The notes under the pieces: model-generated
The model's database searches: none
What the model saw: the letters and a program-made list of their open reading frames with translations, nothing else
What the model was told of the DNA's origin: nothing
Virus record (IMG/VR): IMGVR_UViG_3300005805_000042
Source: a virus
Direction: 5' to 3' (one strand)
DNA length: 64,000 nt
Part shown: positions 52,082 through 56,934 of the stretch, piece after piece
Layout: each line of letters begins with the position of its first letter
How positions within the stretch are numbered: the stretch's first letter is position 1
Position numbers and translations under genes: made by a program

Positions 52082-52477
52082 ATGGAACTTATTTTACCCT
52101 CAAAGATTACATTAAAATCTAGTGATGTTCATGGATTAGGTATCTTTGCAACAAAAAAAATAAAAAAAGGTGAAGTCATCGAAGAGAGCCCAATCATGAG
52201 ACTACCTATCGAGCCAGGAGAGAGTAGTCCTTTGTTTTCAAACTATCGATTTGCATGGCCTAAAGGAGAAGGATGGCATAGTCATGTTGTGGCTATGGGA
52301 TACGCATCGTATTACAACCACTCGGATAACCCAAATGCTGAATGGAACAACAATTTAGAAAACATGACTTTTATGTTTACCGCCCTTACGGACATCAAAC
52401 CTGGTGAGGAAATCTTTGTTTACTACGGACCAGAAACTTACTGGTTTGACGAGCAAACGAAGGTTGAAGGAAAATAA
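52082..52477 (+). CDS. SET-domain lysine methyltransferase
   Basis: HGLGIFATKKIKKGEVI, YNHSDNPNA, IKPGEEIFVYYG. Confidence 0.92.
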   Translation: MELILPSKITLKSSDVHGLGIFATKKIKKGEVIEESPIMRLPIEPGESSPLFSNYRFAWPKGEGWHSHVVAMGYASYYNHSDNPNAEWNNNLENMTFMFTALTDIKPGEEIFVYYGPETYWFDEQTKVEGK

Positions 52478-54231
52478 TGTCAGTTGGACTAACAATAGAA
52501 TCCAAAGCCATCTCCATATTGGAGAACTACTCGGGGGCTAACAACTATATCTTGGGGTTAAAAGTCAAACTTGACAAAAACTCCAAGTTTTATCCTACGC
52601 GTAGTCAATCAGAATACATCATTAATAATCATTCTAAGACCCCACTTGTAGCAAAGAAGTGGGTTGTCTTGGATTCTTATTTTGCTAATAAGATTGCCGA
52701 TGAGAGATTAATGATGACAATTCCCGAAAAGATTTGGATTGAAAAATTGTTGGCAGAAAAAGATAAAGCCTACCACATTTGGGGTAAATTCTCTGAGGAA
52801 GACCCCTTGACGGAGATGTGGATTCCTAAAGTAGCAATTATCAAAGATAACAAAGTTGAAATTGCCGAAGTTGATTACACAAAATATTCACATCGTCCTC
52901 CCCTTGAACACCAAAAGGTTGCCATCGAAGAACTCCTTAAAAATAAGAAGTACATCTTGGCGGATGATATGGGTTTGGGAAAAACTACCTCGACAATTAT
53001 CGCATCATTAGAAATGGGGGTAAAAAAGATTTTGATAATCTGTCCCGCCTCTCTGAAAATTAATTGGCAAAGAGAATATCAACTCTACTCTGAAAAAACA
53101 AGTTATGTCTGTGAGGGCAAAAACTACTCTGAAGAATCTGATATTGTGATAATGAATTACGACATTATCAAAAATTTCCACGATTCAAAAGACAGAAAGA
53201 ACTCGATAATTATGAAGTCCAATTTCGATTTAGTTATCATCGATGAGGCACACTATATTCAAAATGTACAAGCTCAAAGAACCAAACTAATCAACGACTT
53301 GGTTAGAGACATCGACCGATTGTGGTTATTAACGGGAACCCCTATGACCTCTCGACCAATTAACTATTTCAATCTTTTGTCGTTGGTTGATTCCCCCGTT
53401 GCCAAAAATTGGATGGCGTATGTTGTTAGATATTGTTCGGGATATCAGTTTAGGGTTGGTCCAAGAAAAGTTTGGAATGTAATGGGTGCGTCCAACTTGG
53501 AAGAATTAAGAGACCGAACCGGTGCAACTGTCCTTAGAAGATTAAAAGAAGATGTATTGGACTTACCTGAAAAAATTATCACTCCTGTATACCTTCGCCT
53601 TCGTTCGAAACTTTACGAAGAGGTTATGGGAGATTATTATAATTGGTATGAAAAAAATCCTGAGGAAAGTAAAAACCTTTCAATTCAGTTCACCAAACTA
53701 ACTCAGGTAAGACAGGTAATTGCTGAGGAAAAAACTCAACACACAATTGAACTTGCGGAAAACATTGTGGAACAAGGGAAAAAAGTTATCATCTTTTGTA
53801 ATTTCACCAAGTCACTTGAAACAATCGTTAATCACTTTGGTAAAAGTGCTGTGAGGTTAGATGGTTCGATGAATAAGACCCAAAGACAGGATTCCGTAGA
53901 TAGGTTTCAAGAAGATGATAATGTAAAAGTGTTTGTTGGTAACATCAAGGCTGCTGGCGTGGGAATTACCCTAACCGCAGCCGAAGCTGTAATTATGAAT
54001 GACCTTTCATTTCTTCCTTCAGACCACAGTCAGTCAGAAGATAGGGCATACAGATACGGACAAAAAAATAATGTTTTGGTGTACTACCCAATTTTCGAAA
54101 ACACAATCGAGGGTATCATCTACGACATATTAAACAATAAAAAAAGAATAATAGCTACAGTTATGGGTGATACTTCGGATGAGACAAATATTGTTGAAGA
54201 AATTTTAAAGAGTATAAATCAAAGGAGATAA
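52477..54231 (+). CDS. SNF2-family (SMARCAL1-like) helicase/ATPase
   Basis: LADDMGLGKT, IIDEAH, LTGTP, QSEDRAYRYGQ. Confidence 0.93.
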   Translation: MSVGLTIESKAISILENYSGANNYILGLKVKLDKNSKFYPTRSQSEYIINNHSKTPLVAKKWVVLDSYFANKIADERLMMTIPEKIWIEKLLAEKDKAYHIWGKFSEEDPLTEMWIPKVAIIKDNKVEIAEVDYTKYSHRPPLEHQKVAIEELLKNKKYILADDMGLGKTTSTIIASLEMGVKKILIICPASLKINWQREYQLYSEKTSYVCEGKNYSEESDIVIMNYDIIKNFHDSKDRKNSIIMKSNFDLVIIDEAHYIQNVQAQRTKLINDLVRDIDRLWLLTGTPMTSRPINYFNLLSLVDSPVAKNWMAYVVRYCSGYQFRVGPRKVWNVMGASNLEELRDRTGATVLRRLKEDVLDLPEKIITPVYLRLRSKLYEEVMGDYYNWYEKNPEESKNLSIQFTKLTQVRQVIAEEKTQHTIELAENIVEQGKKVIIFCNFTKSLETIVNHFGKSAVRLDGSMNKTQRQDSVDRFQEDDNVKVFVGNIKAAGVGITLTAAEAVIMNDLSFLPSDHSQSEDRAYRYGQKNNVLVYYPIFENTIEGIIYDILNNKKRIIATVMGDTSDETNIVEEILKSINQRR

Positions 54232-54246: not shown

Positions 54247-54254
54247 TATTTATA
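54247..54254 (+). promoter_or_regulatory. TATTTATA late-gene motif
   Basis: 17 nt upstream of the SOD-fusion ATG 54272. Confidence 0.6.
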
Positions 54255-54271
54255 GAAAAATAATATAGACC

Positions 54272-55798
54272 ATGCAACACATACAAGAATCGGTAGAGAA
54301 GATTGAAAAACAAATTCTTCACGAACAAAAAAGAGAACAAGCCAAAGAACTTTTACAAGAAGGAAAAAAAATCGGAATAGAAAAATTACCCTACAGTTAC
54401 TCTGCGGTAAAAAGATTCATAGATTCCGAAACCATGAATGTCCACTACAACAAACACTACAAAGGTTATGTGGATAAACTCAACAACTTATTGTCAAAGA
54501 GAAAGGGAGACCATGACCTCGAAAAAATAATCAGAGGTATTTCAAAATACCCTAAAGGAGTAAGAGATAACGCAGGGGGTGCATTTAACCACGCTCTTTT
54601 TTGGAATATGTTATCCCCCCAACCACAAAGAATCGGTAAAGAGTTACTTCAACAAATTAAAAAAGATTTTGGAACATTCGAGAAGTTTAAAAAACAATTC
54701 GAAGAAGTTGCCATACAAAGATTCGGTTCAGGATGGGTGTGGTTAATCCTTACCAACAAAGGAACCCTAAAGATAATGTCAACTCCCAATCAAGATAATC
54801 CATTGATGAATGTAATTGAAGGCGGCGGATATCCAATTTTGGGCTTAGATTTGTGGGAACATGCATACTACCTCAAATACAAAAACAAAAGAGATGAGTA
54901 TATCAAAAACTTTTGGACCGTGGTCAATTGGGACTTTGTGGGAGATATGTATACACTCAAAACACAAACCAAGTTATTGGAGTCACAAGAAATGGGTAAG
55001 ATACTAATGGAAACAAAATCAGAATCGTGTACAAGGGGGGAAGTAGAATTCTTCAGAGTGTTGTTCAACAACAACCTACGCGCAAGAGACATCTATAAGA
55101 ATACAATTAATGATATTCTTAGAAACCTCTTTGCTGACAACTACCACAACAAAAGGGAGAATGGTGAAATACCTGGGGTTTACGATTTAGAAAAACCGGG
55201 TCGTAGTGTCATTAATTATATGAACACTAACTATTCCGTCTTTTGTATTATGGTAAGAGATTTAAATAGAGTGATTACCAAGTCACTCAAGGAAAAATCT
55301 GTAAACTTCGAAGGGAAGACCCCTGCAGAACAAATCACAGAAATGAAAAGACTCTGTAATTACATCGAACAATTCAGTTCAAGAATTTTTGACCCAAACA
55401 GTCAAACATTCCATTCTATTATGAATACCCTCAAAGAGAAGGATAATGTTGGTACCCGTAGAGAAAATATGGCACAGGTTCGTCTTCAAGAGAGTATTCC
55501 AAACGCTAAGGTAATTGTGACAGCAGGTGCTGGAAAAACCAAAGACGCAATTCAAAAAATAGACATGGAAATAGTTGTCGAAAACTCGAAACTTACTGCA
55601 CAGGTAAAAGGGTTCGATGAGATTTTGGAACAAAACGGTCGTTTGGTTGTGACCAAGACTGGTGAAGTCGCAAAATACAATGTTGATTGGATGGTATTTG
55701 TTAAGGGTAAAAAAGTGGTTGTCTTTGAAAACAAAGGTGAAATTGTCATGGGAAACTATGTTTTTGAGAAAACACAAATGATATACGATTTGAGATAA
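54272..55798 (+). CDS. sod: Fe/Mn superoxide dismutase (Mn-type signature) fused to C-terminal PD-(D/E)xK-like domain
   Basis: HYNKHYKGYV, NAGGAFNHALFW, FGSGWVWL, TPNQDNP, DLWEHAYY. About 270 extra C-terminal aa with G.RRE...D....ID...T.QVK. Confidence 0.85.
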   Translation: MQHIQESVEKIEKQILHEQKREQAKELLQEGKKIGIEKLPYSYSAVKRFIDSETMNVHYNKHYKGYVDKLNNLLSKRKGDHDLEKIIRGISKYPKGVRDNAGGAFNHALFWNMLSPQPQRIGKELLQQIKKDFGTFEKFKKQFEEVAIQRFGSGWVWLILTNKGTLKIMSTPNQDNPLMNVIEGGGYPILGLDLWEHAYYLKYKNKRDEYIKNFWTVVNWDFVGDMYTLKTQTKLLESQEMGKILMETKSESCTRGEVEFFRVLFNNNLRARDIYKNTINDILRNLFADNYHNKRENGEIPGVYDLEKPGRSVINYMNTNYSVFCIMVRDLNRVITKSLKEKSVNFEGKTPAEQITEMKRLCNYIEQFSSRIFDPNSQTFHSIMNTLKEKDNVGTRRENMAQVRLQESIPNAKVIVTAGAGKTKDAIQKIDMEIVVENSKLTAQVKGFDEILEQNGRLVVTKTGEVAKYNVDWMVFVKGKKVVVFENKGEIVMGNYVFEKTQMIYDLR

Positions 55799-55804
55799 TC
55801 GCGG

Positions 55805-55812
55805 TATTTATA
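55805..55812 (+). promoter_or_regulatory. TATTTATA late-gene motif
   Basis: 3 nt upstream of the gp13-like ATG 55816. Confidence 0.6.
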
Positions 55813-55815
55813 GGT

Positions 55816-56934
55816 ATGGCTGTATTACCTGAACCCGAAAGAAGTAGAATTTATACACGACTTCGTCACCAACTTGGTGCCCCTCTGAGAGCTGTAGAAC
55901 TTGAAGATGAAATGTTGGACTCCTTGATGGAATTATCCATTCAAGACTATGAACAATATACTTTGGATTGGCTTATTGAATCTAACTGGGTTAATTTGGT
56001 TAACCTAAATATGAACGAGAAATCAGTGGCTAGAGCTTTGGTTACCCGTACTTTTAATTTAGAAGACCAATTTACATATGCATACTCTAAGATTGTGGGT
56101 TTACAAACTACAGGTCCTTATGTGTTGAAAAAGGATTATTTTGTGTTAAGTGCTAACACCCAATCATACGAAATACCTGCAGGTAGAGAAATAAATGAGT
56201 TACTATGGTTTTCGAATCAACCTTTTCAGAACTTAGCTCTTTTTGGTACAACTGATTATGGGTTTGGTGGTTTGGGATTAGGAGCAAACCAAGCGGGATA
56301 CGCTCAAATTGGAAATGCGGGTTCTTATTTTATGCTAAGTGGCTTTGATTATCTACTTCGATTCCAAGAGGCAAATATTCTAAATAGAATTTTGGGTGGG
56401 GCGTTGACTTACAAAATTACGGGATTACCTGATGGTAAAAGATTAGTGACCCTCTACAACGCACCTGGTTCAAACTTTTCGTTTAGTAATTATTCCTCTT
56501 ACACCGGCAAAGCTGTTTGGTATTGGTATTATGATGTTGATGGGGACAGTCGTGCACAATGTATAAAAGACAATCCTGACATTATCAAATTACCGTCTGA
56601 TGTTCCAATCGAAGAACTTTCTTGGGAAGACTTAAATGTGCCAGCGCAACAATGGGTCAGAAAGTGGTTTACCGCATATTCTAAAGAAACATTATCAAGA
56701 GTTAGAGGAAAATATTCAGGAAATCTTAAAACACCTGACTCAGAGCTTCAAATGGACTATCAGTCGTTGGCTACGGAGTCCAAGGATGAAAAATCTAAAT
56801 TAGAAGAAGAATTGAAACTAAGGTTAGAAAGACTACGCCCTGAAAAACAAATGGAAAAAGAAGCACTATTGGCAGAAAATCTCAACAAACAAATGAAGTT
56901 TAGAGCAATGCCAAGACAAATCTATGTTGTTTAA
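55816..56934 (+). CDS. Neck / head-tail adaptor protein (T4 gp13-like)
   Basis: LRHQLGAPLRAVELEDE, WVRKWFTAYSKETLSRVRGKYSG...ELQMD pattern. Confidence 0.75.
   Translation: MAVLPEPERSRIYTRLRHQLGAPLRAVELEDEMLDSLMELSIQDYEQYTLDWLIESNWVNLVNLNMNEKSVARALVTRTFNLEDQFTYAYSKIVGLQTTGPYVLKKDYFVLSANTQSYEIPAGREINELLWFSNQPFQNLALFGTTDYGFGGLGLGANQAGYAQIGNAGSYFMLSGFDYLLRFQEANILNRILGGALTYKITGLPDGKRLVTLYNAPGSNFSFSNYSSYTGKAVWYWYYDVDGDSRAQCIKDNPDIIKLPSDVPIEELSWEDLNVPAQQWVRKWFTAYSKETLSRVRGKYSGNLKTPDSELQMDYQSLATESKDEKSKLEEELKLRLERLRPEKQMEKEALLAENLNKQMKFRAMPRQIYVV

Follow-up and report, generated by a model that had tools for sequence, protein, structure and literature searches.

Phage-encoded superoxide dismutases (SODs) are usually viewed as simple auxiliary metabolic genes. 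In phage T4, propeptides, capsid-targeting sequences and the packaged enzyme Alt have been described (PMC9026906), and T4 gp4 is described as a virion-associated nuclease with a restriction-endonuclease (REase) fold needed for packaging and morphogenesis (Benler et al. 2020, via PMC7824862). The SOD of chlorovirus PBCV-1 is made late and packaged in the virion (PMC7019647), and for jumbo phage PA5oct the note "ESI-MS/MS" is the label for proteins detected in the virion preparation (PMC7318152). The present study concerns a gene in a 64,000-nucleotide stretch of DNA of a large freshwater phage (IMG/VR record IMGVR_UViG_3300005805_000042; the whole stretch is referred to as the window), in which a SOD appears as a long-kept insert in a late protein with a predicted nuclease fold. 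An earlier note, made from the letters of this DNA, had named no described SOD-nuclease fusion, and our literature search likewise found neither a described phage SOD-nuclease fusion nor a jumbo-phage virion SOD.

A fusion gene with an intact superoxide dismutase

The gene is a single open reading frame (ORF) of 508 amino acids (aa), and the nearest virus record, itself a fragment, encodes a 100% identical protein. The leader, SOD, linker and C-terminal region into which the earlier note had divided it were all located by sequence, as listed below (pI, isoelectric point).

54272..55798 (including stop), + strand: the 508-aa ORF, ATG to TAA, 59 kDa, pI 9.2
54272..54361, + strand: charged leader, residues 1-30, ending in L-Q-E30, with [LIVM]xE at residue 30 in 100% of 55 fusions
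54377..54955, + strand: Fe/Mn SOD, residues 36-228, with Mn-type signatures, pI 9.6 (Pfam, PDB, ligands)
54956..55027, + strand: acidic linker, residues 229-252, with the conserved L-L-E237 and L-M-E247
55028..55441, + strand: helical domain predicted by modelling, residues 253-390, with the conserved GVYDLEKPGRSVINYMNTNYSVFC block and no known fold
55442..55795, + strand: predicted PD-(D/E)xK-fold domain, residues 391-508, with E398, D425, D431, Q444, K446 and Y469 (model and conservation)

Sequence comparison confirmed the predicted SOD as an intact and complete member of the Fe/Mn family, with Mn-type signatures. Residues 36-115 match Pfam Sod_Fe_N (E 3.9e-20, 72.5 bits against a cut-off of 27) and residues 123-224 match Sod_Fe_C (E 6.6e-41, 138.9 bits, cut-off 20.9), while the closest solved structure, 3tjt, aligns with residues 30-227 at E 3e-58. 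All four metal ligands claimed by the earlier note are present when the protein is aligned to 3tjt (H58, H107, D193 and H197, in the motifs HYNKHY, NHALFW and DLWEH), as are the signatures A-G-G-A-F-N-H at 101-107 and N-Q-D at 173-175, whose Gln is residue 174; the G-G pair and the active-site Gln are taken by us as marks of Mn specificity. The identity of the domain to bacterial MnSODs is about 46%.

The fusion recurs widely. A search with residues 235-508 returned 58 protein clusters from JGI, ENA, NCBI and Logan assemblies, nearly all of 505-513 aa and with both SOD Pfam domains, in which identity falls to 38% over the C-terminal part and to about 45% overall; two scans of viral contigs added about 50 independent IMG/VR loci from many samples. 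The existence of a real, multi-domain fusion protein is thereby confirmed. An assembly chimera, or the joining of adjacent genes by a sequencing error, is so improbable that it may be set aside: no support for it was found, only one gene in the collection appears disrupted, and the recurrence of the same ORF of 505-517 aa in 58 clusters of four assembly sources and on about 50 IMG/VR contigs rules it out. The earlier note had listed such a chimera among the outcomes that would refute its proposal. The disrupted gene lies on a short contig (L032:865-2266), where the SOD and C-terminal matches overlap, as would be expected from a frameshift or from faulty assembly of that contig.

The C-terminal part and its predicted nuclease fold

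Nothing significant was found for the C-terminal part in Pfam, PHROGs or the PDB, either with the single sequence or with the profiles of alignments A2 and A4. No named nuclease family was matched in Pfam among 70 family members, in which the sole weak matches were one each to Mrr_cat_2 and RE_EcoO109I (E 0.0045). Its 274 residues were considered at the level of structure, using an AlphaFold2 model built from a 31-sequence alignment, in which model residues 157-274 correspond to protein residues 391-508; the model reached a predicted local distance difference test (pLDDT) score of 86.7 and a predicted template modelling (pTM) score of 0.81.

Structural comparison of residues 391-508 with VIA-align placed the resolvase Hjc (2wcw) first, at Z 7.9 with 98 residues aligned and a root-mean-square deviation of 3.5, followed by I-Ssp6803I (Z 7.7) and NhoI (Z 7.5), with 92-106 residues aligned across these top three. 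HhaI, DpnI and tRNA-splicing endonucleases came further down, with Hjc, I-Ssp6803I, NhoI, HhaI and DpnI spanning Z 5.8-7.9, and nearly all of the best 50 rows were from PD-(D/E)xK-fold nuclease families. The Foldseek ranking agrees with that of VIA-align, with 2ost as its best match (E 2e-3) and a probability of 1.00 for 2ost and 4tkd, and among viral models Foldseek finds proteins annotated as PD-(D/E)xK. The ESM Atlas gave leads only: hypothetical proteins of viruses scored 0.91, and RE_MjaI, Mrr_cat and Hjc scored 0.83-0.84.

The motifs of the domain fit this placement. They are an RRE ending in E398, KIDMEI at 429-434 (D431) and TAQVKG at 442-447 (Q444, K446); in the model E398 lies on a long helix before the sheet, D431 at the start of a strand and Q444-x-K446 in the strand that follows. 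In the best 149 of 346 representative clusters collected with a C-terminal profile, conservation was 114/119 for E398, 120/122 for D425, 126/126 for D431, 125/128 for Q444, 127/128 for K446 and 128/128 for Y469, a constraint strong enough to point to a working active site or a metal-binding site. The layout E...D...D...Q-x-K is Mrr-like.

A PD-(D/E)xK, REase-like fold of the last 118 aa is thus supported at the fold and motif level by the model, and since the Z values are middling (below 8) we take the matches as fold-level support and nothing beyond it. The earlier note had named the presence of an REase fold beforehand as one of the points on which its proposal should be judged, and the modelled domain does match Hjc, I-Ssp6803I and NhoI. 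Its assignment of the whole C-terminal region of about 270 aa as nuclease-like, however, holds for these 118 residues and not for the other 138, which are helical and without a fold match. Modelled alone, this helical domain reached pLDDT 92.3 and pTM 0.85, and it contains GVYDLEKPGRSVINYMNTNYSVFC, the most conserved block. No convincing neighbour was obtained in the fold search, the best being IcmW at Z 4.6 and Foldseek values being E 0.9 or worse; the model therefore presents it as a probably novel domain.

An older phage family into which the dismutase was inserted

The C-terminal profile had been searched against 1.84 billion representative proteins, and the 346 clusters were those at E ≤ 1e-3. 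In the best 149, 73 representatives have a length of 230-310 aa and, apart from one fragment (P0089), no SOD motif; the SOD is present in 11, and a few others are extended at the N-terminus by unannotated sequence. The gene context of the fusion is given by the following two neighbours.

52477..54231, + strand: SNF2-type helicase gene, the invariant upstream neighbour (phrog_62, E 3e-110; synteny)
55816..56934, + strand: gp13-like neck (head-tail adaptor) gene, next downstream in all loci (phrog_211, E 6.7e-10; synteny)

By BLASTP, the two ends of the downstream gene product match T4 gp13 in collinear order (E 2e-5 and 0.002). Every fusion locus has the same order, namely sheath, p353, p171, (SET), SNF2 helicase, SOD fusion, gp13-like, p111 and PolB, and in the far clades the fusion protein is 45-50% identical, compared with 67-70% for SNF2 and about 70% for PolB, so that the fusion evolves faster than its neighbours. 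A 215-kb contig carries, in the same SNF2/gp13-like slot, a 294-aa ortholog that has no SOD (L052:5911-6795, +) and retains a related leader, linker and core. This ortholog is a natural SOD-less control. The contigs of the stand-alone members are mostly too short to give a context, the exception being contig L076, on which the very divergent stand-alone protein P0095 is followed directly 3' by a gp13-like gene 58% identical to that of the window.

The earlier note had regarded the C-terminal part as a partner placed behind the SOD. The 346 clusters and the L052 ortholog indicate a different history, in which an independent phage protein, the C-terminal unit of about 270 aa, belongs to an older, widespread stand-alone family and the SOD was inserted into it, between leader and body, in one sub-lineage. 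Judged from the L052 slot and from the gp13-like gene adjoining P0095, the unit is a core gene of the lineage, linked to the neck gene, and its product consists of a short leader, the modelled novel helical domain and the predicted PD-(D/E)xK-fold domain.

For this core family no Pfam model, no PDB sequence match and no significant PHROG match was found. The UniProt entry A0A6J5L953 (501 aa), which has a template modelling (TM) score of 0.86 to the model, is labelled only "superoxide dismutase". When the whole protein and distant members were compared with GenBank phages by tblastn, only SODs and one uncultured 735-kb phage were returned, and no cultured relative with virion proteomics was found among those phages. 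This 735-kb phage (LR756501.1, match at 692897-693520) is the sole phage entry in GenBank to carry the core family, and it links the lineage of the window to the very largest phages.

Two further ORFs touch the neighbourhood of the core gene. A 131-aa SET-like ORF (window 52082-52477) overlaps the start of SNF2; it occurs in only some of the syntenic lineages, being absent from L010-L023 and 46-75% identical elsewhere. In L052 alone, a 253-aa ORF whose start resembles a GIY-YIG homing endonuclease (L052:3287-4048, -) lies between p171 and SNF2.

Head genes of close relatives and candidate protease sites

The premise in the earlier note of a T4-type prohead protease holds for close relatives of the window. 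Two of them, G002 and G004, whose fusion proteins are 96% and 84% identical to that of the window, encode a Peptidase_S77 protein of the T4 gp21 family (81.9 and 88.9 bits, respectively, with a cut-off of 27) and also a gp23-like capsid protein. The head module of the close relatives is T4-like, comprising terminase, portal, protease, scaffold and capsid genes. Five [LI]xE fall within the first 60 residues of the gp23-like capsid protein of the lineage (L073:7596-9389, -), and in 33 distinct capsid N-termini an L-I-N-E|A is invariant, at a site N-terminal to the part alignable with T4 gp23. This lineage of large myoviruses with T4-type heads is very common in metagenome-derived viral contigs, where its capsid protein is matched by at least 598 stretches.

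In the fusion protein of the window, sites of the L-x-E type occur in the leader at 4-6 (I-Q-E), 16-18 (L-H-E) and 28-30 (L-Q-E), and the linker segment LLESQEMGKILMET at residues 235-248, part of a region modelled with low confidence (pLDDT 48-65), contains L-L-E and L-M-E. Conservation was scored over 55 distinct fusion proteins, in which five positions carry [LIVM]xE at a frequency of at least 85%. Three of the five stand at domain borders: 28-30, just before the SOD (100%), and 235-237 (96%) and 245-247 (100%), both in the linker. The other two are the buried catalytic L-W-E-H of the SOD and a site in a helix of the core domain. At all three border sites the middle residue is free to vary. 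The leader and linker sites reported in the earlier note are therefore present, and those at the borders are conserved in 96-100% of the fusions. The idea that translation might also start within the linker was discarded, as M241 and M246 are not conserved in homologs.

Clustered N-terminal sites are uncommon in G002, where only 8 of 168 ORFs contain at least three [LI]xE within their first 42 aa. Among the eight are the fusion protein, the prohead protease and a 235-aa ORF, located between the genes for protease and portal, that may encode a scaffold protein. Some distant members of the core family begin with MKKxSxIxE. Three small G002 proteins share a leader of the form MKK(I/V)(I/V)(K/R)LTE(S/T)D, and the one that was checked has a pI of 9.7; by their sequences these may form a family with T4-style capsid-targeting/cleavage leaders, as candidate internal head proteins. 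Their genes are as follows.

L073:5383-5865, + strand: small G002 leader-bearing protein
G002 125705-126043 (inside L084): small G002 leader-bearing protein
G002 126638-127132 (inside L084): small G002 leader-bearing protein

The SOD domain is unusually basic, with a pI of 9.2-9.8 in 55/55 fusions, compared with 5.1-6.5 for five stand-alone SODs of bacteria and phages. The C-terminal part has a median pI of 8.9. In the window protein the leader and the linker are themselves acidic; across the 55 fusions, leader pI values run from 4.9 to 10.3 (median 6.2). The median pI of the G002 proteome is 5.4, with 8% of its proteins above pI 9, and four of the five G002 proteins more basic than the fusion are encoded in or beside the head module or in a nearby run of small leader-bearing proteins. 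Together with the retention of the fusion in frame and with fixed borders, the shift in SOD pI argues for adaptation to a new setting.

A promoter-like motif shared with tail and neck genes

The motif noted earlier upstream of the gene is present there and again before the neck gene.

54247..54254, + strand: TATTTATA promoter-like motif, 18 nt 5' of the fusion-gene ATG
55805..55812, + strand: second TATTTATA motif, directly 5' of the neck gene

The window has 11 copies of TATTTATA, where 5.7 were expected and 11 were reached in 3 of 100 shuffles, and 6 of the 11 sit just 5' of gene starts. An ATTTATA core is kept 5' of the orthologous fusion gene in 14 divergent loci of all clades, with diverging spacers, and also 5' of the neck gene across clades despite the divergence of its spacer. 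A looser core, TATTTAT(A/C/T), is found 4-45 nt 5' of 14 gene starts in the window, at the following positions.

2277, 4017, 10593, 19190, 21602, 42743, 44501, 45976, 50165, 52028, 54272, 55816, 60748, 61210: gene starts preceded by TATTTAT

Tail-fibre, baseplate, tube, sheath or neck genes make up 11 of these 14, the others being the fusion gene, PolB and one small ORF; in the window the TATTTAT core was not found 5' of the RNR, DnaB, exonuclease, UvsX, SSB and SET-SNF2 genes. No Shine-Dalgarno sequence is evident at the 14 starts, and the spacings of 4-5 nt at some of them would imply leaderless or near-leaderless mRNAs. Since its ATTTATA core has persisted in every clade as the spacer changed, the TATTTATA-type motif is real, and it is associated largely, though not exclusively, with structural genes. 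In the earlier note it had been called a virion-gene motif; PolB carries it too, so that it is not exclusive to virion genes.

Proposed mechanism and alternative explanations

The following mechanism may be proposed for the fusion protein. A precursor would be made late and loaded into the prohead, where a prohead protease of the T4 gp21 type would cut it after E30 and after E237 and/or E247. These cuts would release a basic SOD of 24 kDa and a basic nuclease-like protein of 30 kDa. Like T4 Alt and the internal proteins, the two would be retained with the DNA in the head and pass into the cell alongside it; superoxide close to the phage DNA would be removed by the SOD, either within the particle or on entry, and the nuclease-like part would act on DNA. 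We consider release by the protease and carriage in the capsid to be the single most likely mechanism, while granting it somewhat less than an even chance. The complete scheme, of a prohead-loaded polyprotein from which the protease frees a basic Mn-SOD and a nuclease that both lie on the DNA in the capsid and are co-injected, is more doubtful than that. The S77 protease of the relatives, the conserved [LIVM]xE sites at the borders, the basic SOD and the promoter-like motif shared with tail and neck genes all speak, as circumstantial evidence, for capsid carriage after cleavage, and to that extent the polyprotein idea of the earlier note is supported in part. Precedents exist in the T4 internal proteins, whose basic mature parts are freed from an N-terminal targeting propeptide, in T4 Alt, which is packaged likewise (PMC9026906), in the late, virion-packaged SOD of PBCV-1 and in the SOD-like gene of PA5oct with its ESI-MS/MS note.

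Several observations weigh against it. The protease and capsid genes were found in the relatives and not in the window or in the nearest record, which are fragments without the head module. In 54 residues so rich in Glu, Leu and Ile, about 2-3 [LIVM]xE are expected by chance, and the leader of the fusion (MQHIQE...) is unlike the MKKxxxLTE leader of the small basic G002 proteins that most resemble internal proteins. The fold matches are middling, with Z under 8, and if an active nuclease were packaged beside the genome, the phage DNA would have to be protected or the enzyme kept inactive. Moreover, the strict linkage to the neck gene fits a role in head completion equally well, and a protein with such a role would not meet the prohead protease.

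That role forms the closest competitor, which ranks close behind capsid carriage but is still improbable when taken alone: the protein would remain uncut and serve as a head-completion or packaging nuclease, as a counterpart of T4 gp4 or as a debranching enzyme (Endo VII/Hjc), working with the neck proteins on DNA at the portal once packaging is done. The SOD, still tethered, would simply be carried along and protect the DNA or the packaging machinery locally. The position of the core gene directly 5' of the gp13-like gene in every locus, even for the divergent P0095, agrees with it, as do the promoter-like motif common to the core and neck genes and the best fold matches to Holliday-junction resolvases and small endonucleases, and T4 gp4 offers a precedent as a virion-associated REase-fold nuclease (PMC7824862). 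The core protein is nevertheless without sequence or profile similarity to T4 gp4: hhalign of alignment A2 gave a probability of 0.1 and no homology, in a comparison whose sensitivity is limited by the single-sequence template. No gp4, Endonuclease_7, Hjc or RuvC was found above threshold in the partial records G002, G004 and G005 (G005 has a sub-threshold Endonuclease_7 match of 14.4 bits, cut-off 23.6), which leaves room for a resolvase role of the core protein but is weak evidence because these records are only 25-73% complete. A head-completion nuclease also leaves unexplained the [LIVM]xE sites at the borders, the acidic spacers beside basic domains and the insertion of the SOD itself. 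An ordinary late auxiliary SOD is less likely again. Here a host-derived enzyme would have landed in frame in a late gene and would lower late-phase superoxide in the cytoplasm; the fusion would do no more than ensure co-expression, and the C-terminal part might be a non-catalytic DNA-binding or structural protein. Stand-alone Fe/Mn SODs do occur in other phages (freshwater phage MW462191, a Vibrio phage and PA5oct), the SOD is present in a minority of the core family, and its catalytic residues are all intact. However, the fusion has been kept in frame, with fixed borders, down to about 45% overall identity, its SOD surface differs in pI (9.2-9.8) from the five stand-alone SODs, and the strong constraint on the E/D/D/QxK/Y residues argues against a mere structural role of the C-terminal part.

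If capsid carriage with proteolytic release and co-injection is true, no phage before this one would be known to bring an antioxidant enzyme into the cell along with its genome. It would then follow that a pre-existing head protein can serve as a scaffold that accepts enzymatic cargo between its protease sites, giving a natural case of modular enzyme loading into T4-type heads, and oxidative damage at the packaged or entering genome would be indicated as a selective pressure. Even if it is not true, a new, widespread, neck-linked phage family with a predicted active site of E398, D431, Q444 and K446 has been added.

Comparison with known systems

With the Fe/Mn SODs, a family that includes stand-alone phage SODs (freshwater phage MW462191, Vibrio phage 2.275.O and PA5oct EST35_0261), the SOD described here shares both Pfam domains, the four ligands and the Mn-type signatures. 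It differs in being enclosed by a leader of 30 aa and a C-terminal extension of 280 aa, in the motif that its gene has in common with tail and neck genes, and in its pI of 9.2-9.8 instead of 5.1-6.5. EST35_0261 of the cultured Pseudomonas jumbo phage PA5oct (L173:186-734, +), annotated as "hypothetical", is SOD-like and 27% identical to the SOD of the window, and its GenBank entry carries the ESI-MS/MS note. PBCV-1 A245R is likewise a viral SOD, but one of the Cu/Zn class, from a eukaryotic virus, stand-alone and with no protease-processing model.

The predicted fold of the C-terminal domain resembles that of small PD-(D/E)xK nucleases such as Hjc, I-Ssp6803I, NhoI and DpnI, including the helix Glu, the second-strand Asp and the third-strand Q-x-K. 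Unlike them, it has the additional invariant residues D425 and Y469, is all-beta after the third strand, is joined to a 138-aa helical domain and has no Pfam or PDB sequence match. T4 gp4 is similarly late, has an REase-like fold and is linked to head and neck morphogenesis genes, whereas the core protein is twice its size, adjoins a gp13-like gene rather than genes 2 and 3, and carries the SOD insert.

T4 Alt and IPI-III are targeted to the prohead, processed by gp21 and ejected with the DNA. What the fusion has in common with them is a gp21-type protease in the lineage, an N-terminal, propeptide-like leader with (L/I)-x-E at its end, putative mature parts that are basic, and enzymatic cargo. 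The fusion differs from them in the proposed release of two domains by internal cuts and in a leader without similarity to the T4 capsid-targeting sequences.

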